Below, in pieces: positions 14,298 through 44,570 of a DNA stretch of 64,000 nt. The stretch is from Octopus sinensis (taxonomy: Eukaryota): positions 54,684,001-54,748,000 of the forward strand of contig NC_043004.1 of the NCBI RefSeq assembly GCF_006345805.1, given 5' to 3'. Numbering within the stretch: position 1 is the first letter of the stretch; each line of letters starts with the position of its first letter. Made by a program: the position numbers and the translations under genes. The notes under the pieces were generated by a model. That model was not told the DNA's origin, ran no database searches, and saw only the letters and a list, made by a program, of their open reading frames with translations.

Positions 14298-14402
<105 letters not shown>

Positions 14403-14551
14403 AGTAGTTGAATGAATTATCCTAGTATGGATAATTCGGTTAACCGATACCTGGGTAGCAAATTCACGTCAGAAAACACGGTTGAAGCTACATGCCAAGG
14501 GCAGAGATCACGTGCTTTTGTGTGGAAATTTGTGTGTTTTTTTTACTATAA

Positions 14552-14909
14552 ATAAATGAAAGAATGGAGTCGAACGACGATTTAACAAAATTCCTTTATT
14601 CTCGACATATGTTTCAAAGACTGCATATTCTTAATTCCGAAGGAATAGGGGGTGCATTATGCCGCCTTCTCATCAAGAAAGACAAGGAACTTATGTCAGC
14701 ATCATGACGAACAAGACTTTTTTGTTCGTGTGTGCAGTCATCTAAAAATTTTTGTTCGTCATGATGCTGACATAAGTTCCTTGTCTTTCCTGATGAGAAG
14801 GCGGAATAGTGCACCCCTTATTCCTTCGGAATTAGGAATATGCAGTCTTCGAAACATATGTCGAGAATAAAGGAATTTTGTTAAATCGTCGTTCGACTCC
14901 ATTCTTTCA

Positions 14910-14914
<5 letters not shown>
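14552..14914. repeat. Long inverted repeat (~160-bp arms, ~40-nt spacer), Penelope-like fold-back terminus
   Basis: Arms are reverse-complementary with about 6 mismatches. Mirror ORFs 14614..14814(-) and 14652..14870(+). (TA)n at the right end. Confidence 0.9.
14786..14866 (+). ncRNA. Type I hammerhead ribozyme motif (PLE-type)
   Basis: TTTC-CTGATGA-GAAGGC[..]GTCTTC-GAAAC-ATAT-GTC/GAGA: intact core, 6-bp stem II, palindromic stem III ACATATGT, 4-bp stem I. Predicted cleavage after 14862. Confidence 0.75.
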
Positions 14915-14941
<27 letters not shown>

Positions 14942-29129: not shown

Positions 29130-29218
<89 letters not shown>

Positions 29219-29491
29219 ATATATATATAAATATATATATTAAAAATTAAGGGTAGAAATTGATATTAGTCAATTAAAACCAGTGGTCTAGCACATAAAA
29301 AGAATCCGAAGATTAAAATATTTATATATACCAATTAAGGACTGAACACGAAAAGGTGGACAGTCAACATGCTAGATATAGACGTCAAATCGCCATTCTC
29401 CACAAAGATTTTGTTCTCAAATAAAAATAAAATTCAGCACGACCTAAAGCAATGGATGAGACAAAAGAATTATACTAAATGGAATAATTAC

Positions 29492-29551
29492 CTACGTACT
29501 GCAGTTTCAGTTATTAATATCACAAGGATATCTGTAACTTCATCAGCGTAG
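29492..29551 (-). ncRNA. Type I hammerhead ribozyme (mirror copy)
   Basis: Exact reverse complement of 29583-29642. Confidence 0.8.
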
Positions 29552-29582
29552 TTTGTTATGAGCATATTATGCTCATAACAAA

Positions 29583-29642
29583 CTACGCTGATGAAGTTAC
29601 AGATATCCTTGTGATATTAATAACTGAAACTGCAGTACGTAG
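29583..29642 (+). ncRNA. Type I hammerhead ribozyme (PLE-type)
   Basis: CTACG-CTGATGA-AGTTA[cagatatccttgtgatattaa]TAACT-GAAAC-TGCA-GTA/CGTAG: perfect 5-bp stem I, 5-bp stem II, palindromic stem III ACTGCAGT. Predicted cleavage after 29637. Confidence 0.85.
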
Positions 29643-29988
29643 GTAATTATTCCATTTAGTATAATTCTTTTGTCTCATCCATTGCTTTAGGTCGTGCTGA
29701 ATTTTATTTTTATTTGAGAACAAAATCTTTGTGGAGAATGGCGATTTGACGTCTATATCTAGCATGTTGACTGTCCACCTTTTCGTGTTCAGTCCTTAAT
29801 TGGTATATATAAATATATATATATATTCATACACACGCGGTCACGCACAAGCACTCACACGCATACGCACACACATACGCACAAGCATGCACACACACAC
29901 ACACACACATACAATTAGATAGACATAAAGATATATAGATAGATAGATACATACATACATACATACATACATACATACATACATACAT

Positions 29989-30874: not shown

Positions 30875-33800
30875 TTACAGATTTATGCTTAAAATAGTGT
30901 CGTCTTTCATACTGACCATTTTTGCCACTTTTACCCACTGTTTATTAAAACATCCGTTCGACAAAGCCTTCCTCTCTATTCTCATCCTCCTTTTCAAGTG
31001 GTACTTGAAAAAGTTGACGAGAGACTGACCAGAGAGGAAGGTGTTTGTTTGCAGTCCTTTCAAACGCGTCCACCACACACATTCTTTCGCCATAGCCATC
31101 AGCGTAACGAAAACCGTTTTCCTTTCCCGTTTAAAGGAAGGTGGTGGAACAATATTCACAATAGACTCGGCCGATAGGCGAGCCTGACCTACACGTGACA
31201 ACAGTTGTTCGACGAAGGACCACAGCTCTGAAATATCTGGACACTGCACGAGTGCGTGCAGAACGGTTTCGTCGCTCTGACCGCATCTCGGGCAGGTCGG
31301 TCCGGTGATGGTTTTCGAACCGTGTCTGTAGCTCTTCTCTCGAACAGGTAGTGCGTCTCGATAGCACTGCCAAGCCAGGGATTTCTGGAAGTTATCCATA
31401 GGCCTCGGCCCGAACGTCGTCCTGAACAGGCGGGTTAGGAATTCTTCGTCGACGCCCAGGTTTGCCCCGAGTGTGTCGTCGGACCTCCCCTCCACTAGTC
31501 CTCTATAGAACGCTTTAGTCGTTTGTAAGTTGCACAAGTTTGACCCCGGTCGGCAGAGCTGCTGTAGAGCTTGGCGACACTCTCGGTGCCAATCGCCCAG
31601 TTTCGGTCTCTTTTTGATCCACGTTTGCAGTTCGGTCAGTGAGACGAGCGGCGGGAAGTCGCGCCTCACAAACGGCGCCCACACCTGTTCACCGTCGTCA
31701 ATGAATTTCCAGAGATGTCGCAGTCTCAGCGCATGCCTGCGCATCATCAACCACGACATGCCCAGTCCTCCATTCAACGGATGTTGACAGCAAATGGACT
31801 TCCTCACAATCGGAACGCCATCCTTCCACAGGAAGCGGAAGAGTATGCGCTCCAGTTTGGTGATGGTGGCGTCGGGACAAGGTACGACGGTCAGGCGGTA
31901 ATCGATGACGGATGCGATGTACGCGTTCGCCACCTCCGCCCGGCCTTTTAGAGACAGCTTTCTCTCGGCCCATGTTTGGCTGAGAGCGACCACTCTACTC
32001 GTGATCTCGTCCCAGTTCTTATCCATTTGGAGGTCGGACTGAACCAGACCCCGAGCAATTTAACGGTCCGTCCGTCTAGCGTCCCACTACTGAGCCGCAG
32101 TCGGACGGCATGGGCTTGCTTTTCCAGGTGCCGAGTAGCAAACCCACTGACTTTTCCGGGTTAATCTTTGCTCTCGTCACCGTTTCGTATTTTCTTAGTG
32201 TCTCGCCTATCATCTTGATGTGTTTGTCGCTCGACACTATGACGGTGACATCGTCCGCATATGCCGACACGCTCGTCCCGCAACCCAGTTCCCGTGGGAT
32301 GCCCCTCAGTGTCGCCAGCTTCCGCAGTAGCGGCTCGAGAGTCAATACATACAGAAGCGCCGACAGGGGACACCCCTGACGGACCGAACGCGTGATGTCA
32401 AACGGTTTCAACAGGTGACCGTTCACCCGAATCACCGATCGTATGCCGCTATACAAGGCAGCGATCCAACCGCGGAAGACGGGACCGAAGCCAGCCGCCC
32501 TGAGGACGGCCGCCAAGTACCGATGGTCGACCCTATCGGAGGCTTTAGACTGATCCAAATTTATCAGCGTCCCACCCATGCCAGGATCTTTAACTACCCT
32601 GTCCACAATGTAGTGCATCAGATGGAGGTTGTCATATATGGTTCTGCCCGGCACGGCGCATGTTTGCGCCCTGTCGACCAGTTTACCAATGACAAGCGCC
32701 AACCTCTCGGCTATTACTTTGGCCAAAATTTTCAAATCTGCGTTGAGCAGAGTGATGGGCCTGAAATTATCTATAAAATTCCCCTTGTTTGGGTCTTTCT
32801 TCAGCAACGTTACTACAACTCGGCTCACGAAACCGGGGATTCTCCTGTTTTGTTGCCAGATGCAGTAGACTGATGCCAAGAGGTCGCCAAACAAGTCTGG
32901 CATTCGACAATACAGCTCGTAGGGTAAACCATCCAATCCAGGCGACTTATCCCTCGCGCAGCCCGCCATCGCATCCCACACGTCAGCGGCTGTGATGGGA
33001 CTTTCACAACACACCGCTTCTCCTGCCGAAAGCCACGGCAGGTCGGTCAGGTAGGCACTGAAATCCATCCCGCGTTCCGACCCACCACTCGCACCAAACA
33101 GTCGAGCAAAGTGCTGTTGAAAGGCCTCACACATCCTTTCGGCTTCGAGTAAACTGCATTCCTGTTGATCTATTAGAGACCGAATGGTGGCTCTGTTGCC
33201 ACGCTGCGCCTCCGCTACCCGGGCCTCTCGCGCAGCTTCGATCCCTTCGTTCCTTAAGGCACGCATTTTAGCTCTGACGACGCAACCTTCGTGCTTGGCG
33301 TTGAGGTGTTGGTCGAGGGCCATCCTCGCAGCCAGCACGTTGGTTGCGCTGCCAGTGGTAAGTGCCATTTCTAGTTTCTTAACCAAGTCTCCCTCTACTC
33401 TATTTCGTTCTATCGCTAATTCCTTGCTAAACTTAATTGATTCCGATTTTATTGCCATTTTCAGGGCGTACCACCAGCGGTTGTTACCGACGGCTTCCGT
33501 CAGCGCCCTCTTAATTAACTCGCTGATCCGGTTCCTGTAGACCTGTCGCGCTAACAGCGACGTGTTCAGTTTCCAGTAACCGGGACCCTGCCTATGTGTT
33601 TTATCTAAGTCGAGCGTACACGTAACAAATTTGTGATCTGTGTAGCTGACTATTTTAAATTGTGGACATCCTACACTATCCCTATCCGCTGTCCTGCATA
33701 GAATTCTATCTAGATAAGATCTCGACGATCCGACGCGGTTTGTCCAAGTCCACGTTGGCACGTTCGGATGGTCGAGTCGGAACCTGTCATACAAATGGAA

Positions 33801-34320
33801 ACGTCTGAGCAGGTCTTTGAGGCTCTTACACCCCCTTCTATTCCTATTCCTTCCCACATAATCTAGATGCGTGTCCAAGGTAGCGTTACAATCCCCTACT
33901 AACAGTAAAGGTCTAGACGTACCCAGGAAAACCTCTAGACGTCTGAAGAAATCCGCCCGACCCATTAAGGACGGTGCATAAACTGCCATCAGACGGAATG
34001 CACACCATTTCTGCCATCCACGTCCAAGACAACCAGCCTACCCTCCGGGTCTAGGATATTGCTCTTATTTTTACATTTAGACTCTTTCGAAAAAGCACCG
34101 TGGTACCTCCACCACCCATGTTCGGCAGACATGGAGAAAAATAAATGTCAAATTGATTGCCAAACATGGACTCGAGGGCCCGCGGCTTACTGAGTCTGGT
34201 TTCACTGATAGCTACTATATCCACATTCAGTGACTTGATGTCGTTTAGAAGGTAACCTTGCTTCCAAGCCGATGCCAAGCCACGCGCATTCACACAACCT
34301 AATTTAAGCATACTTGACAT
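30875..34320 (-). pseudogene. Tx1 ORF2: APE endonuclease + reverse transcriptase + Cys-rich C-terminus, disrupted
   Basis: CVNARGL..AISETRL, GDCN, SYLDRIL, TDHK (APE). KSPGLDGLPYELY, NFRPITLLNADLKILAKV, DQSKASDRV, RQGCPLS, AYADDV (RT). CPRCGQSDETVLHALVQC. Broken at ~34051 and ~32076. Confidence 0.92.
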
Positions 34321-34377
34321 TTACGAAAATTGTGTTTTACACACTACATTAGGAGAGACAAGAGGCAAGAGGGGAGG

Positions 34378-36257
34378 TCACTTACTCATTTTAGAAGTTT
34401 CATTTTTTTCTTCTTCTTTTGTATTGTTTTTGATGAGGTGTTTGTATAGTTTTTTCGACAGGTATCGTTGAAACCCGCCTACCGCATTCGGAAATATTGT
34501 TTTCAGTATGTGGTGTTTTGCTTGTGTTATGTGTAAAATTCTGATGTGTTTCGGTGGTGTGGTGTGCGGATGATTGTTTGTCTTAAAGTCATCTTCACAG
34601 ATGACCGTGCTGGATGTGATGTAGTCCATTAATTCTTTATTGTCTGTGTCTATTGCAGTTAGTTGTGTGTGTGGTTTTACGGTTTCATTGCTTTTTTGAT
34701 TGTCTAGGGGGATGTTGTCCGGAGTTAGATATCTCCCTGCTTTACTTCCTTGTTTGGTGGATTTTTTGGATCTTTTCCTTTTACCCCCTGTGGCTATTTG
34801 CCATTCCGTCGAACTTTCGTCGTCCGACGTATCAGTAGAAGGTAAAGGCAAAGCATTTGCATTACTATGTATGCTTGTAAAAATTGTTGATGTTTTGTGC
34901 GGTGTTTGTGTTGTTGTGGTGTTAGGGGTAGAATTTGTCTTCTTGTCACTGTTTTGTCTTTTTAATTGTCGTCCTCGGTGTGGGTGTTGGTCTATTTTTT
35001 GTTGATTCAACATGCTTAATTGGTTGTGATGTCAACGGTGATTGTGTTGGTACTGTTTCTTTTCTTGGTGATGTTGTTGGGGTTTGTTTACTGGTTTGTT
35101 GTTTTTCTTGGCATTGTTCCATAATTGAGTGTGTTGGTGTTGGTGTTGGCAACAAGGGTTTTTTTATTTGTTTTCTGATTTGTTCTTTCTTGTTTTTTCT
35201 GTAACAGAGCGCACTTGGCAATTAAATGTTCGGGGCTGCCACAGTTGTAGCATCTAGGCTTTTTGCCTTCTGCTACAACATATAGGCATTGCCCATTTTC
35301 CAAGTGGATCTTATCCGGTAGGCTCTCGATAGAGGCCCCCTCAATCTGTATGGTCACCACTATTGTCTTCCCACCCCAAATGTCGCCAAGGTACACGGCG
35401 GTTTCCAAAATGTTGATATTTTTTAAATGGTAACAGATTGTCCCTGTTATCCATTTGTTAGGAATCTCGGGAGGTACATTTTTAATAGTGAGTCGACTTA
35501 CTCTCTGGTTTTTATAGTATGGGACCATGATTATTTCATCATTTCCCAGAGACTCAGTAGAGTGAGCTTTTGTCACTTCCTAGTTAGGGAAGCGGACCAC
35601 TACTGTGTTAAACTGGGGACCCCAGTTTATATATTCTTTTTCTTTCATTATGTTTTTTAAGCATTTTTCTACATCCGTTTTTGTAATCTGTTCATTCAGT
35701 TTTTTGTTTTTTCTTATAATTTTATAAATAATTGTCTTATTTTCTATTTCTTGCTTTATGTGTTGAGGTGTATGCAGCTCTAAATCTTGTCCACGAGTTG
35801 TAAAGAGAGCTCTTGCTTCTATGAGCTCTTCATTTGTAAATGTTACAATCTCCTTCTTCTGGCGAAGAGTGTCAGCGAAATTTACTGGTGTTGTTGATTT
35901 TTTTGTATTAACATCTTCACTATTAGATAGTTCATTTTTATTGTTGTTCTTGTTGTTGCTGTTGTTTTTGTCAATAGTTTTCGTGTGAGTTTTATTTTTA
36001 TCATTTATGTTGGTCGTGGTAGTGGTAGTGGTGGTGGATGTGGTGGCGGTAGCAGTAGTAGTCTCGTGGTTGCTGTTGTTAGTGGTGGTGGTGGTGACAG
36101 GGCTGTTACCGCACGTGGTTGCAGCGTTCATTCCACCGATATTCATGTTTGCACTTTGCGTGCGTACGTTCTTTTTTTCTCCTAGCGTTTCCAGACTAGG
36201 AAAATGCTGTTCCATAAAAGAACGCGACCAGCGTTCTACAATACAATTTCTCGACAT
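34378..36257 (-). pseudogene. Tx1 ORF1 (gag-like, CCHC zinc knuckle), disrupted
   Basis: CYNCGSPEHLIAKC = CX2CX4HX4C. In-frame stop at 35580-35582 and frameshifts in the T/P/K-rich linker. Collinear with ORF1 pieces of copy F. Confidence 0.85.
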
Positions 36258-36450
36258 TTTCTAATGTCGAGAAGAAAATTACAGAAATGAAATGGGGTTG
36301 AAACTGCCCCTGGGGCGAATTCCTCCCTTGGAAAAGCACTCAAACGAAAGTTGGGTGCCTTACACACCTTATTTGCAAAAATGTACACAAAATATGGGCT
36401 ATAAATAGTCAAAATAAACGATTAATTCGGAGCCGAAGTGACAGCACGTC

Positions 36451-36451
36451 C

Positions 36452-36486
<35 letters not shown>

Positions 36487-36545
36487 CATACATACATACA
36501 TACATAAATACATACATACATACATACATACATACATACATAGAC

Positions 36546-36626
<81 letters not shown>

Positions 36627-36646
36627 CATAGATAGATACATAGATA
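36451..36646. repeat. (GATA)n/(CATA)n spacer between Tx1 copies C and D
   Basis: Directly visible. Confidence 0.95.
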
Positions 36647-38569
36647 TGTTTCTTTATTAGCCACACAGGGCTGCACACAGATAGAACAAATTACAAGGTA
36701 GAGCTTTTCTTTTGAAGGTATTAAAAAAAAAAAAAAAAAAAGGAAGGGGGAGGTTCGATCAAAAGGGATCGTAAAAGGAGAGAAAGAGGACAAAAATAAG
36801 GGGGGTTAAAAAAAAAAAAAAAAGGGGGGGAGAGGAAAAAAAAATGATCAATAGGGATCGTTATCACAGAAATGTCAATATGAAGTGTAAAGGGGAGGAC
36901 AGGTGAGGTTTACCCGTGGAAAGAAAAGCCTGCGGAAAAGACCACGGTAACCTCGGTCAATGAAGTCACATTTTATATTTCTTTTTTTTTTTTTTTTTTT
37001 TGCAAATAAGCAACTCTCTGTTTTCGATTTCTGGGTTCATAGGACTATGCTCAAGGTGGCTTCGTCATTCATACGTGCCATTCTTGCTACATTCACCCAT
37101 CTTTTTTTAAAACATTCGCTAGACAAAACTTGCCTCTCTACTCTCACTTTCCTTTTCAAGTGGTACTTGAAGAAGTTGATGAGAGATTGACCAGAGAGGA
37201 AAGTGTTTGTCTCCAATCCTTTCAGACGCGTCCACCAGATACATTCTTTCGCCATAGCCACAAGGATGATGAAAATAGCTCTTCCTTCCCGTTTGAAGGA
37301 AGGAGGCGTGACAATATTGACGATAGACTCAGCTGATAAACCGACTCGTCCCACACGTGACAGCAGTTGTTCGACATAAGCCCACAGGTCGGAAATTGTT
37401 GGACACTGAACGAGTGCGTGCAGAACGGTTTCGTCGCTCTGACCGCATCTCGGGCAGGTCGGCCCCGTGTTTCTCGAGCCGTGTCTGTAGAGCTTATCCC
37501 GAACGGGTAGCGCTTCTCGGTAGCACTGCCAGGCCAGGGATCTCTGGAAGTTGTCCATGGGCCCTGGCCCGAAAGTCGTCCCGAACAGGCGGGTCAGGTA
37601 CTCCTCGTCGACGTCCAGGTTCGCCCCGAGCTCGTCGTCGTACCTCCCCTCCACTAAACCCCTATAGAATGCTTTGGTTGTGTTGAAGTCACTTAAGGTC
37701 GACCCAGGACGGCAGAGTTGCTTGAGAGCAACGCGACACTCGCGGTGCCATTCGCCCTTCCTCGGCCTCTTTTTGATCCACGACTGCAGTTCGGTCATGG
37801 AGACGAGCTGCGGGAAAGCGTGCCTCACAAACGGCGACCACACCTGTTCACCGTCGTCTACATAGAGCCAGAGATGTCGCAGTCTCAGCGCGTGTCTGCG
37901 CATCATCAACCACGGCATGCCCAGCCCTCCTTTTAACGGGTGTTGACAGCAAATGGATCGCCTGACCATCGGGACGCATCCTTTCCACAAGAAGCGAAAG
38001 AGGATGCGTTGTAGTTTGGTGATGGTAGGGTCGGGACAAGGTACGACGGTCAGGCGGTAGTAGATGACGGACGCGATGTACGTGTTCGCCACCTCCGCTC
38101 GACCTTTTAGGGACAGTTTCCTCTCGGCCCATTGCCGGGCGAGAGTGACCACCCTACTCGTTATCTCGTTCCAGTTCTTCTCCACTTGGGGGTCCGGACC
38201 AAACCAGACCCCGAGCAACTCAACCGGCCGTCGGTCCAGCGTCCCACGACGGAGGCGCTGGTGGACGGCATGGGCTTGCTTCTCCAGGTGCCTAGTCGCA
38301 AGCCCACTGACTTTTCCCGGTTGATTTTCGCTCCTGTCACCGCTTCGTAGTTTTTCAGTGTCTCGCCGACCAGCTCGATGTGCTCGTGGCTAGACACTAT
38401 GACGGTGACGTCGTCCGCGTATGCAGACACGCTCGTCCCGCATCCCAATTCTCGCGGGATGCCCCTTAGAGTCGCCAGCTTCCGCAGTAGTGGCTCAAGA
38501 GTCAATACGTATAGAAGCGCCGAGAGGGGGCATCCCTGACGGACCGAACGTGCAATGTCGAAAGGTCTC
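36647..38569 (-). mobile_element. 5'-truncated Tx1 copy (D, ~1.9 kb)
   Basis: ORFs 37037..38218 and 38161..38505 (AYADDV; CPRCGQSDETVLHALVQC). The 3' UTR is the same subfamily as copy A. The 5' end is fused to (GATA)n. Confidence 0.92.
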
Positions 38570-38702
<133 letters not shown>

Positions 38703-38752
38703 GTAGATAGATAGGTAGGTAGGTAGGTAGGTAGGTAAGTAGATAGATAGAT

Positions 38753-39044
38753 AAGTTTCTTTATTGGCCACACTGGGCTGCACACAGATGGGACAAGTTA
38801 CAAGGTAGAGCTTTTCTTTTGGGGGATGAAAAAAACAAAAAACAAAAGAAACAAAAAAAAGGGGTGGCGTAGGTTTTCGATCAAGAGGGATCGTAAAAGG
38901 GAAGAAAAAAACAAAAAATAAAAAATAAATAAAAGAAAAAAGAAAAAAAGAAAATAAAAGAAAAGGAAAAGGAACAAAAGAAAAGAGAAATGAAAAAAGA
39001 AGAAAAAAGGGGGAAAAGAAGGGGGAAGAGGAAAATAAATGATC
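38753..39044 (-). mobile_element. Tx1 3'-UTR-only copy (E)
   Basis: Nearly identical to copy B. Separated from copy F by only ~11 nt of ATAGATAGATA. Confidence 0.85.
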
Positions 39045-39055
39045 ATAGATAGATA

Positions 39056-42000
39056 ACTTTCTTTTATTAGCCACACAGGGCTGAATACAGAGGGGACAAA
39101 TACAAATGCAGAGCTTTACTTTTCGAGGGTGGCAAAACAGAAAATAAATGTAAGATTGCGATCAAAAGGGATCGAGAGGAGGAAAAAAAAGGAAAAGAAA
39201 TCGTGTATCACAGAAACAATAATAAAAACATTGATAAAACAAGATTGAGTTCATCCTTGGGAAGAAAAGCCTACAGAAAAGACCACGGGAACCTCAGTCA
39301 GGGAGGAAATAACCACATGAGAGCAAAATGCTCTCTTTCTTTCTTTTTTACGATCTACAGGATCATGCTCAAAATGGTTTCGTCACTCGCACGCACCATC
39401 TTTGCAACATTCACCCATCTTTTTTTTAATCTTTCGCGAGACAAAACTTCCCTCTCCATTCTCACCTTCTTTTCAAGTGGTACTTGAAAAAGTTGATGAG
39501 CGATTGGCCAGAGAGGTAAGTGTTTGTCTCTAATCCTTTCGCTCGGGCCCACCACACACATTCTTTCACCATGGCCACCAGTACGATGAAAACTGCCTTG
39601 CCTTCCCGGTTGAGGGAAGGTGGCGGAGCAATCCACACGATAGAGTCGGCCGATAGGCGGATTCGTCCCACACGTGACAGCAGCCGTTCGGCATAAGCCC
39701 ACAGGTCTGAAATGGTTGGACATTGCACGAGTGCGTGCAGAACGGTTTCGTCGCTCTGACCGCATCTCGGGCAAGTCGGTCCAGTGTGTCTGGAACCGTG
39801 TCTGTAGAGCTTATCCCGAACAGGTTATGCTTCTCGGTAGCACTGCCAGGCCAGGGATCTTTGGTGGTTGTTCATAGGTCCCGGCCCGAAAGTTGTCCTG
39901 AACAGGCGGGTCAGGTGTTCCTCGTCGACGCCCAGACTCTGCCCGAGTTCGTCGTCGCACCTCCCCTCCACTAATCCTCTATAGAATTCCCTTGTTGTGA
40001 TGGAGTCGCACAAGTTCGACCCAGGACGGCAGAGTTGCTTGAGAGCAACGCGACACTCGCGGTGCCATTCGCCTAGCCTCAGTCTCTGCTTGATCCATGA
40101 CTGTAGTTCGTCCAAGGAGACGAGCTGCGGGAAAGCGCGCCGCACAAAAGGCGACCACACCTGTTTACCGTTGTCTATGAAGCGCCGGAGATGTCGCTGT
40201 CTCAGCGCATGTCTGCACATCATCAACCACGGCATGCCCAGCCCTCCATTTAGCGGGTGTTGACAGCAAATGGATCGCCTAACCATCGGAACGTTTCCCT
40301 TCCACAAGAAGCGGAAGAGAATACGTTCCAGTTTGGTGATGGTAGGGTCGGGACAAGGCACGACGGTCAGACGATACTCGATGACGGATGCGATGTACGC
40401 GTTCGCCACCTCCGCCCGACCTTTTAGGGATAGCTTTCTCTCAGCCCATTTCTGGGTGAGAGTAGCCACCCTAGTCGTTATCTCGCCCCAGTTCTTCTCC
40501 ATTTGGAGGTCCGGACCGAACCAGACCCCGAAAAATTTAACCGGTCCGTCCGTCCAGCGTCCCACGATGGAGACGCTGTTGGACGGCATGGGCCTGCTTC
40601 TCCAGGTGCCGAGCCGCAAGCCCACTGACTTTTCCCGGTTAATTTTTGCTCCCGTTACCGCTTCGTATTCTTTTAGTGTCTCGCCGACCAGCTCGATGTG
40701 CTGGTAGCTCGACACTATGACGGTGACGTCATCCGCGTATGCAGACACGCTCCTCCCGCATCCCAGCTCTCGTGGGATGCTCCTCAGCGTCGCCAGTTTC
40801 AGCAGTAGTGGCTCAAGAGTCAATACATACAGCAGCGATGAGAGGGGGTATCCCTGACGAACCGAACGCATGATGTTAAAAGGTCTGGATAGATGACCAT
40901 GTACGCGATGCCGCTGTATAAGGCAGCGATCCAACCGCGGAAAACTGGACCGAAACCAGCCGCTTTAAGGACAGCCTCCAAGTAGTGATGGTCTACCCTA
41001 TCGAAAGCTTTTGATTGATCCAAATTGATCAGCGCCCCACCCATACCAGGATTCTTAACTACCCTGTCTATGATGTAGCGCATCAGATGGAGGTTGTCAT
41101 GAATACTTCTACCCGGCACGGCGCATGTTTGCGCCTTGTCGATTAGTTTCTTGATACAAGCGCCAACCTCTCGGCTAACACCTTGGCCAAAATTTTCAAA
41201 TCTGCGTTGAGCAGAGTGATGGGCCTGAAATTATTTATGACGTCCCCTTTGTTTGGGTCTTTCTTAATCAGTGCCACTGCTCCTCGCTTTACAAAAGCAG
41301 GAATACTCACGTTTTGCTGCCAGTTGCAGTAGACAGCTGCCAAGACGCCTCCAAACAAGTCTGGCATATGGCAATAAAGTTCGTAGGGCAGACTATCCAA
41401 GCCTGGTGACTTGTCTCTCGCGCAGCCCCCCATCGCATCCTGTACGTCCGCAGCTGTGATAGGCCTTTCACAAGACTCCACCTCTCTTGCTGAGAGTCGT
41501 GGCAAGGCATGCAGGTAGGCACTAAAGTCCACTCTGCGTTCTGACCCACCACTTGTCCCAAACAGTTGGGTGAAGTGTTGTTGAAAAGCCCCACACATCC
41601 TTTTAGGCTCGAGCAATTCGCGCCCCTGTTCATCTATAAGAGACTTGATGGTGGCTCTGTTGCCTCGTTGCGTCTCCACCACTCGGGCCTCTTGGGCGGC
41701 TCCAACTCCTTCGTTCCTCAGAGCACGCATCCTAGCTCTGACAACGCATCCCTCGTGTTTGGCGTTGCGGTGTTGGTCGAGGGCCAATCTCGCCGCCAGC
41801 ATGTTGGACGCGATGCCAGTTCTAAGTGCCTCTTCTAAAACCTTAACTAATTCTCCCTCTATTCTATTTCGGTCTAATGCTAGGGCTTTACTGTATCTAA
41901 CTGATTCTGCTTTAATTGCTTTTTTTAGGTCATACCACCATCTGTTGTTGATGATGGTACCCGTCAAAGCTCTCTTAACTAATGTGCTGATCCGGTCCCT

Positions 42001-44570
42001 GTAAACCTGTCGTGCTGTAAAAGACGCGTTCAGTTTCCAGTAACCAGGACCCTGCCTATGTGTCTTATCTAAGTCAAGTGTACAAGTCACAAACTTGTGA
42101 TCTGTGTAACTGACTATATGAAATTGTGGACAACCTACACTATTTTTATCTATTGTCCTACAGAATACTCTATCTAAGTATGATCTGGACGACCCGATGC
42201 GGTTACTCCATGTCCACATTGGCACATTCGGGTGGTCCAGTCGGTACCTGTCAGACAGTTGGAAACGTCTGAGCAGGTCTTTCAGGCATTTGCATCCCCT
42301 TCTATTGCTATCTCTGCACACGTAGTCTAGATGCGTGTTCAGGGTGGCATTCCAATCCCCCACTAAAAGTAAAGGACGAGACGTCCCCATGAAAGACTCT
42401 AGACGTCGAAAGAAATGTGGTCGGCCTGTTAAGGACGGAGCATAAACTGTTATCAGTCGAAAAGCACACTAATTGACATCGACATCCAAAACGACCAGAC
42501 TACCCTCCGGGTCTAGGAAAATTGCTCTTACTTTGAGATCCAGACTCTTCCGGAGAAGCACCGCGGTGCCACCTCCGCCCATTCTCGGTAGACACAGAGA
42601 AAAATAAATGTTGAAATGTGTACCGAAACTGTGCTGGAGTGCCCGCAAGCTGTGGAGTCTGGTCTCACTGACGGCTATGATATTCAGATTTAGTGACTTG
42701 ATGTCATTTAACAGGTAGCCTTGTTTGCAAGGCGACCCCAAGCTACGTACATTTATACTGCCTATTCTGAGCATGTTCCGATAAAAAATTGTGTTTTACA
42801 CACGAAAAGAAAGTGCAAAAAAGGAAAGAGAGAGAGAAAAGGTTGCTTGTTGTCCGAAAGTCCTTTGTTTTTCACCTCACAGTCTTCTTCCATGAGGTTT
42901 TATATAGTTTCTTTGATGAATATTTTTGAAATCTCCCTACTGCATCAGGGTAAAGAGATTTCAGGGTGCTGTATGTGTTCTGTGTTACGTATATTATTTT
43001 AATGTATTGTGGTGGTGTTGTGCGTGGGTGGTTATTTGTTTTTATGTCGTTTTCAGTTATGTTGGTGTTTGACCTAATGTGTTCCATTAGGTCGTGGTTG
43101 TTTGTGTTTATGGCTGTCAACATTGTTGGGGGGTTTGATGATGGTGTGTTTGTGTTGATGTGTTTGTTTTCTGTGGATGTTTTTGTTTCGGGAGTGATGA
43201 ATCTTCCTGCTTTGTTTGTTATCTTTTCTTTTCTTTTTTTCCCCTTTTTCTTCTCCCCCCTGTGGCTATTTGCCAATCTTCTGTGTCTTCTTCGTCTAAT
43301 GACAAATCAGAAGAATCAGAGCTTGGGAGGGGGAAAATATTGGGGTCTATTGTAGACTGTGTTGATTTTGTTGTTGGTGTTGGTTGGTGAGCGTTAGGTT
43401 GTGGTGTATGCGGTTTTGGAGGTGGGGGTGTGAGTATTTTGTGTTTGAGTGATTGTAGGTATTGTGTTGTTTGGGGTGTCAATTTTGTGGGGATTTGGAG
43501 TAGTAATTGTTTCTTCAATAATTTTGACAGATGTCCTTGGTTTGGGAGTTGGTTTATTCTTGGTTGTTGTTGTTGGTGTTGCTTATGTTCTTAGTGCAGT
43601 TGGTGTGGTTGTTTGGTTGGTGAGGTGTGTTTTTTTTATTTTCTGTAATTAGTCCTTTTTGTACAATTTGTGGTGTGGGTAGTAAAGCTGGCTTTTTTGT
43701 TTTTTCCGGCTGCTGTTGTTGTTGCTGTTGTTTTCTTGCGGCATCTTTGCAATCTTTTTTTAGGTGTTGCTCACTGCCGCATATGTAGCAACGTGGTCTT
43801 CTGCCATCGACGACCACATACAACTTGTGGTCTTCTGATACACATATCTGGGTGGGTATTTTCTTTATGTCCTCTTGGTTTATATGTAGTAGAAATTCTA
43901 CTTTTTTTCCACCCAGTTTTTGTGCTCCGTGACCGTAGTTTCTAAAATTGTGAAGTCTTCCATTTTCACACATAAGGCCTTTACTAGCCATAGATTGTTA
44001 GCTATTTTTGGGACATTGTTTAAAGTGATCTTAGTCACTTTCTGTCCACGATAGCTTGGTGTTAGTTGAAGTTCATCTGAATGAAGAGTTAGCGTTGAGA
44101 AACGTCTTGCTAACTCTTCGGATGTGTGCAAACTTGTTCCACCAGGTCACATACTCTTTGTAGTTCCAGATGGGTTTCAAGCATTTTTCGATTTTGCTTG
44201 TGTTAGCCTTCTCTGGACTTTTTGTTTTCTTATTAATTATTTTATATATAATAGTTTTTTTTTCATCTTCTAATATTTCTTGTGGTATGTTTATTTTTAC
44301 TATACCATCTACTTCCGTTATTAAAATATTCGTATCTTTTATTTGTTGTGCAGTAAAATGTACTGTTGTCTTTTTTTCTTTTATCCCCTCGGCGAAATTT
44401 GTTGTTGTTTTGTTATTGTTGTTGCTGGTGGTGATGTTGTTGTTGGCTGCAGTTGGTAAAATCGGTGTATTTGGTTTGATTGTGCAAGTAGGAAGGGGTG
44501 GAAAATTACTTGCATAGTTTATCCCTGTATTCGAGCAGCTTTTGTCAATTTGTTGGGTGGTCACAGTCTT
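39056..44570 (-). mobile_element. Near-full-length Tx1 copy (F, ~5.5 kb), a different subfamily from C
   Basis: ORF2 pieces 39355-42774 (GSINVRSL, SETRL, GDWN, DQSKAFDRV, RQGYPLS, AYADDV). ORF1 pieces 42872-44570 with CYICGSEQHLKKDC. 5' end abuts AGATAGATAG. Confidence 0.92.
39355..42774 (-). pseudogene. Tx1 ORF2 (APE-RT), multiple frameshifts and stops
   Basis: Consecutive ORF fragments collinear with copy C ORF2. Confidence 0.9.

Follow-up and report, generated by a model that had tools for sequence, protein, structure and literature searches.

A stretch of 64,000 nt from the Octopus sinensis genome (contig NC_043004.1, positions 54,684,001 to 54,748,000; hereafter the window) contains a perfect palindrome with a type I hammerhead ribozyme motif on each strand. 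The question raised by this locus is whether the palindrome is a mobile or functional unit in its own right, as a first-pass annotation of the sequence had suggested, or the outcome of the way in which some other element inserts. We find that it is a truncated, two-headed copy of a hammerhead repeat lying inside a (TA)n run, and very probably an ordinary product of Penelope-type insertion. What moves is not the palindrome but a non-coding repeat of 507 nt, arranged in tandem, each unit of which has one hammerhead. The features of the locus are as follows.

29132..29239, no strand: (TA)n target run, left
29240..29573, minus strand: left element arm, unit positions 501-507 plus 1-332, ending 3′ at site B next to (TA)n
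29240..29317, minus strand: tail, the stretch between sites A and B (unit positions 250-332), in one arm only
29318-29566: left arm of the palindrome, 249 nt, 100% complementary to the right arm
29551-29492, minus strand: type I hammerhead motif identical to that on the plus strand, predicted cut at 29497
29561..29573, no strand: 13-nt hairpin at the palindrome centre, 6-bp arms and 1-nt loop
29561..29816, plus strand: right element arm, unit positions 501-507 plus 1-249, ending 3′ at site A next to (TA)n
29568-29816: right arm of the palindrome, 249 nt, with 1 nt between the arms
29583-29642, plus strand: type I hammerhead motif, predicted cut after 29637
29817..29826, no strand: (TA)n target run, right, short

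The geometry first described for the locus is confirmed: two identical 249-bp arms, 100% complementary, meet at a single nucleotide, and (TA)n borders both ends of the element. Beyond the (TA)n runs, the sequence is not mirrored between the two sides. An unpaired left extension of about 80 nt had also been noted, and it is present (29240-29317); it is, however, not an unrelated piece but more of the same repeat unit, and corresponds to the Penelope 'tail', because family copies stop at either of two sites that lie 83 nt from each other. The outer ends of the locus thus follow a B+A pattern. Both arms are shorter than one whole 507-nt unit, and the left arm region is 98% identical to a natural tandem of that unit (locus L009). 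The 13-nt hairpin at the centre is native to the unit, of which it is the longest self-complementary site, and the exact fold-back centre of the window palindrome occurs once in the genome.

Searching the 2.72-Gb genome with one arm returned at least 43 matches at 97-100% identity, many of them about 507 nt apart (40 of 975 candidates scored). The first-pass annotation had suggested such a search to count palindromic against single or tandem copies, and had thought a young mobile family possible; the young multicopy family was there, and inversions were found at 32 of 49 loci, each with its own junction. That the family is young, non-autonomous and non-coding is borne out by 97-99% identity among 41 full-length matches, and the absence of a real ORF by a longest ATG-started frame in the unit of 60 aa, on the antisense strand. 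The repeats, with a GC content of 34%, sit in TA microsatellites at many genomic places, and tandem units in natural loci number up to about 5 per arm. Exact copies of the 3′ half of the ribozyme amount to 173 in the genome, and a 24-mer adjoining site A gives 1804 matches, sister subfamily included. This sister subfamily, at about 78-81% identity, has a different hammerhead; a third subfamily, found via a read motif, comprises 4 loci at 72-84% identity, with no ORF of 150 aa or more. Judged by sequence features, this is a non-LTR retrozyme family: it has tandem units, a hammerhead in each unit, no coding capacity and low GC. The frame expected of an autonomous Penelope-like element (an ORF with RT and GIY-YIG between pLTRs) is absent from the unit, and the signature of Penelope-type mobilisation is present in the form of 5′-truncated tandems, head-to-head inversion, a one-sided tail and a microsatellite target. 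We are highly confident in classing the window locus as an inverted insertion of a retrozyme by Penelope-type machinery.

Each arm hammerhead consists of stem I (CUACG/CGUAG), CUGAUGA, a 5-bp stem II with a 6-bp extension, GAAAC, ACUGCAGU and GUA, so that a complete type I motif lies 16 nt from the centre on both strands, as originally reported. The Rfam check that had been suggested for these motifs returned no hammerhead at gathering score over the window; at E ≤ 10 there were 28 matches, mostly to microRNA-hairpin models, with the hammerhead family absent, and the ribozyme call hence rests on the core motif and covariation. A motif scan of the 49 loci gave 95 matches, 84 of which have all stem I and II pairs and fall into three main types. 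In the window, a locus-private G-to-A change converts a stem II U-G wobble to U-A; across the main subfamily, one stem II pair is C-G in 56 units, U-G in 26 and U-A in 2, the last being the window arms. Related subfamilies show compensatory changes in the hammerhead stems. Among 6 ribozymes from three subfamilies, a set of few and related sequences in which the sister subfamily's stem II is misaligned by one bulged U, 6 pairs have changed on both sides (0 of 500 shuffles), 91.7% of alignment cells pair and stem I is unbroken. Because the stems covary across subfamilies, the hammerhead fold is likely to be under selection as RNA at the family level.

Secondary structure predictions have a single hammerhead copy folding stems I and II without stem III, and two copies pairing into a double hammerhead that shares a stem III of 8 bp (−35.1 versus 2 × −14.0 kcal/mol), in keeping with the earlier proposal of a Penelope-type hammerhead that would act as a dimer through a self-complementary stem III. 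The proposal that the whole transcript folds into a long hairpin likewise agrees with the fold predicted for a 591-nt RNA of the window element (265 pairs, −444 kcal/mol); in read-through RNA of this copy both ribozymes are predicted to be hidden within a long duplex. The circular 507-nt unit has a predicted fold with z = −3.7 against 40 shuffles. None of the sequencing runs listed as containing the sequence is recorded as RNA. In runs guessed to be RNA, a 242-nt contig crosses the cut site and a join leads back by 507 nt, but tandem DNA would look no different.

To define the insertion pattern of the family we took the first 100 of the 173 ribozyme-half matches, in coordinate order, which correspond to 49 loci, and mapped all 49. 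Head-to-head inversions account for 32 of these and single-orientation copies for 17, with no tail-to-tail case. The 3′ ends fall at site A (about unit position 238-249) or site B (about 322-332), 83 nt apart, both running into (TA)n. Single-orientation loci end at A in 11 instances, at B in 5 and elsewhere in 1. Of the 32 inverted loci, five were excluded because one outer end lies away from both sites; in the remaining 27, where both outer ends are canonical, every locus pairs one A with one B (15 B-A and 12 A-B), a result with P = 7e-9 at even odds. In 11 of the 27 the A arm is longer than the B arm, and at L081 it holds unit parts absent from the B arm; the A arm is therefore not simply a copy of the B-arm cDNA. 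A second sample, in which 17 of 30 fetched loci were mapped and 14 new sites were classed by eye, yielded 13 inverted loci, 11 clearly A+B and 2 ambiguous; one locus of this sample, L124, could be an A/A exception. At the opposite end, 2 of 81 5′ ends lie near the ribozyme cut, against 3.7 expected, and a clustering of 5′ ends at unit positions 485-507 (9 of 81, P = 0.011) was lost after scan correction (P = 0.12). Inversion is the usual outcome of insertion, and the view of the palindrome as the mobile unit finds no support, given a centre that is unique, junctions particular to each inverted locus and arms that fall short of a unit. These data come close to the refuting case that the annotation itself had named, an incidental inversion.

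A MITE or fold-back DNA transposon was also considered and does not fit the asymmetric A+B ends, the junctions that all differ or the 17 of 49 loci that have no inversion. Two irregular structures were observed alongside the census. The right arm of L072 (3163-3760) contains a tandem array whose repeats, about 223 nt long (unit 197-421), are shorter than the unit and span sites A and B without the ribozyme; it possibly derives from a small circle or a repeated template jump. L006/L013 (C8730) and L008/L016 (C13), outside the 49 counted loci, are the same inverted locus on two contigs, probably a haplotype duplicated in the assembly.

The junction of every inverted locus differs from the others. 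In most, the joined unit positions are unrelated, and a few bases overlap or have been added as filler at the join. At 7 of the 32 junctions the two arms stop no more than 10 nt from a common unit position (P = 3e-4); these near-palindromic junctions include L087, whose arms are separated by 152 nt, and two loci with irregular outer ends. Near-perfect centres are seen at L098, L062 and L120, and L093 is a 1.65-kb palindrome (97%) with two ribozymes per arm and a duplicated fold-back of 37 nt at its centre. L007 and L068 have a fold-back extension of 1-4 nt at the same hairpin that forms the centre of the window palindrome, which is perfect because its join fell on this 13-nt hairpin of the unit.

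Sequence variation provides evidence on the template. Divergence is 0.54% between units within an arm, 0.46% between opposite arms and 1.65% between loci. Locus-private substitutions covered by at least two units number 99: 9 are found in all covering units, 6 of these in both arms, 86 in a single unit and 4 in two units of one arm. The shared private variants fit one unit haplotype that would have been read repeatedly, as from a circle, and they also fit the transcript of a young uniform array with its parent outside the sample. Patterns at L112/L115 (one locus of the sister subfamily), where a variant is found only in the second ribozyme from the junction and on both arms, and at L092, where two units share a block of variants, are inconsistent with a single monomer circle.

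These observations lead us to propose that the window copy arose in one insertion event, in which a Penelope-type RT/endonuclease primed from both target strands at two internal sites; we give this reading a probability of roughly 0.7. Tandem or circular unit RNA would be bound by a Penelope-like protein, probably a dimer, which would nick both strands of the (TA)n run, one strand priming at internal site A and the other at site B. Each cDNA would then extend over a variable length, up to several units, until one cDNA end snapped back at a short inverted repeat or paired by microhomology, becoming complementary to the other cDNA, and fill-in would leave a head-to-head insertion. The one-of-each rule, the longer A arms and both junction types are all accounted for if both strands prime and the cDNAs are joined by snap-back or microhomology. 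Counting against it are the lack of a parent element among the 40 GIY-YIG loci compared, the 5 inverted loci with one irregular outer end, the possible exception L124, the irregular members of the near-palindromic set, the variant patterns at L112/L115 and L092, and a tail of 83 nt where published tails measure 30-40; in addition, the available text of Frangieh 2024 (PMC11167929) describes no start-site difference between strands in vitro and leaves the pairing of start sites unreported. Since the window copy has a single ribozyme on each strand and lacks a whole unit, it would be a dead end and is likely a dead by-product.

Priming from one strand only is the main competitor. Here the cDNA would start at B, fold back and copy itself, and the endonuclease would cut the intermediate at TA-rich site A, so that the one-of-each rule would stem from cutting and not from a second priming; in a variant, antisense RNA would prime itself, as Arkhipova 2013 (PMC3846280) proposed. 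For the window locus alone this fits well, since the B arm contains the entire A arm, the arms are identical and the centre lies on the hairpin. Site A, moreover, is an internal TATATATA; Craig 2021 (PMC8557442) attributed the tail to resolution by the endonuclease, and the accessible account of Arkhipova 2013 attributes junction palindromes to self-priming. The family as a whole speaks against it: in 11 of the 27 inverted loci the A arm exceeds the B arm in length, site A is where 11 of the 17 non-inverted copies stop, and 25 of 32 junctions are not near-palindromic; in the RT + GIY-YIG family, none of 30 copies ends at an internal TATATATA. Single priming, which we nevertheless regard as unlikely, could be rescued if the B arm was trimmed later or the template was switched repeatedly.

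A selected fold-back ribozyme switch or palindromic mobile unit, with the hairpin silencing the ribozyme or feeding editing or siRNA pathways, matches the geometry first described, the predicted 591-nt RNA hairpin and the intactness of both motifs. Such intactness needs no selection, because the arms are copies of a young family, and arms free of substitutions are common in young loci (L062, L065, L070, L072, L090 and L101). Given a centre unique in the genome, a separate junction at every locus and the lack of a whole unit in either arm, the suggestion of a functional fold-back ribozyme element was not upheld, and we consider it very improbable. Slightly less credible still is a library or assembly fold-back artefact, which the perfect identity of the arms might suggest, as polishing could have evened them out; no contig bridging the centre is among those listed in four sequencing runs, which proves nothing, the data being contigs only, and in 3 of the 4 runs contigs carry family letters and not window-copy letters at 29470-29471, uninformative on the junction. 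Against the artefact stand flanks that are unmirrored, ends that lie at the two canonical sites of the family in the usual A+B pattern, and a centre that matches a native hairpin used also at L007 and L068.

Other hammerhead and Penelope-like elements were found in the genome, and the pairing of long and short ends in two of them counts in favour of priming from both target strands. The window itself contains, at 14402-14919, a second head-to-head hammerhead palindrome with 176-nt arms (95%) between (TA)n runs. It belongs to a hammerhead family that is unrelated to the 507-nt repeat and is represented by 358 exact matches to a 25-mer; a tail of about 140 nt extends the left arm, whose core also has one altered base (TTGATGA), and the core of the right arm is intact. 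Long and short ends are paired in 6 of 6 inverted pairs of this family (30 fetched of the 358 matches, with 110 nt read downstream), and likewise in its copy at 14402-14919. Among autonomous elements, L162 (2032-4374; G000:C1:207475531-207477873) holds a young element with a 781-aa RT + GIY-YIG frame, an upstream 479-aa frame, 98-99% identity among several copies, (TA)n targets and at least 300 + 300 pattern matches; its tail is about 30 nt long, short and long ends are paired in 2 of 2 readable inverted copies, and a motif scan detected no canonical hammerhead. A second RT + GIY-YIG family (L168, 2745-5069; 775 aa) has a minimal hammerhead-like motif in its 3′ region, as seen in L171, and at L175 (1-2091) two short-ended copies of the autonomous element lie tail-to-tail about 370 nt apart, the rarer geometry. 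We take these GIY-YIG elements to be Neptune-like, from their linker motif and not from a tree. Site A was likened to the internal TA run of the autonomous element, a comparison rejected on the 0 of 30 copies ending there, and blastn of the 507-nt unit against 40 GIY-YIG loci (150 of 5029 candidates scored) gave no match to an autonomous parent. Several long LINE frames, up to 653 aa, occupy the minus strand of the window at 30875-42468 and are, by their motifs, presumably L1/Tx1-like.

Several features of the family have counterparts in published systems, cited here from the accessible portions of the papers. Non-LTR retrozymes are defined in Cervera 2020 (PMC7229834), which puts Penelope-like elements forward as candidates for mobilising them, and Li 2026 (bioRxiv 10.64898/2026.07.22.740005) links the two by phylogeny. 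The octopus family resembles metazoan non-LTR retrozymes in its tandem non-coding units, each with one type I hammerhead and low GC, and in its dispersal as monomers to multimers alongside Penelope-like elements. Its 507-nt unit compares with 150-450 bp in Cervera 2020 and 51-972 in Li 2026, and it is set apart from these retrozymes, as described there, by insertion into (TA)n, a pair of fixed 3′ ends and inversions that are frequent. Li 2026 discusses arrays growing locally by unequal crossover, whereas here, on DNA sequence only, they look as if made at insertion.

The likeness to Penelope-like insertions (PMC3846280, PMC8557442, PMC4209133) extends, in the accessible accounts, to head-to-head 5′ inversion, junction palindromes, microsatellite targets, a tail often on one end only and facing hammerheads on opposite strands. 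In Arkhipova 2013 the pLTRs lie head-to-head, with palindromes at their junction and a tail that one of them may carry; Cervera 2014 (PMC4209133) reports pairs of minimal hammerheads, one on each strand at a distance of 100-700 bp, and dimer dependence. Differences are the lack of an ORF here, a tail of 83 nt against their 30-40, and an end asymmetry that is strict (27 of 27) where theirs is given as 'often' or 'optional'. In Frangieh 2024, a Penelope-like protein cuts and extends both strands and two internal starts bound the tail; the octopus family parallels this Poseidon PAc system in having two internal starts downstream of the hammerhead that define a tail, an AT-rich target and extension of both strands. 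In both, copies end away from the ribozyme cut (here 2 of 81 5′ ends lie near it), but the Poseidon PAc starts are described as lying in a stem-loop that is AC-rich and lacks homology to the target, and both sites are TA-rich here. Chlamys MRC1 (Craig 2021) is similarly non-autonomous with multicopy head-to-tail insertions; the Chlamys non-autonomous elements belong to a clade without canonical hammerheads and resemble an autonomous family at their 3′ ends, whereas no such partner was found among the loci compared here. In the main texts of the open-access literature we found no report of twin priming or paired start-site counts in Penelope-like elements, nor of octopus hammerheads associated with Penelope. 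For Penelope-like elements, facing hammerheads, tails and inverted insertions are already on record; new here are the strict one-of-each count and the private variants common to all units of a locus.

The family matters more than the palindrome, and the end-pairing rule is the useful result. Craig 2021 listed the formation of tails and of tandem and inverted structures as an open task, and mobilisation of retrozymes by Penelope-like elements has so far only been proposed. A short, young family with two well-separated 3′ ends supplies a countable rule, one end of each kind, and its 507-nt substrate can enter the existing in vitro system directly. A stricter form of our proposal, in which one Penelope-type dimer acts on one small RNA, probably a circle, at two fixed sites, with both enzymes circling the template and a snap-back join, is put forward tentatively, the odds being close to balanced and tilting slightly against it. 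If it is true, the tail, the head-to-head inversion and the tandem arrays would be the work of one mechanism, the insertion signature would show retrozymes using Penelope enzymes, and most new copies would be a source of hairpin RNA against their own family.
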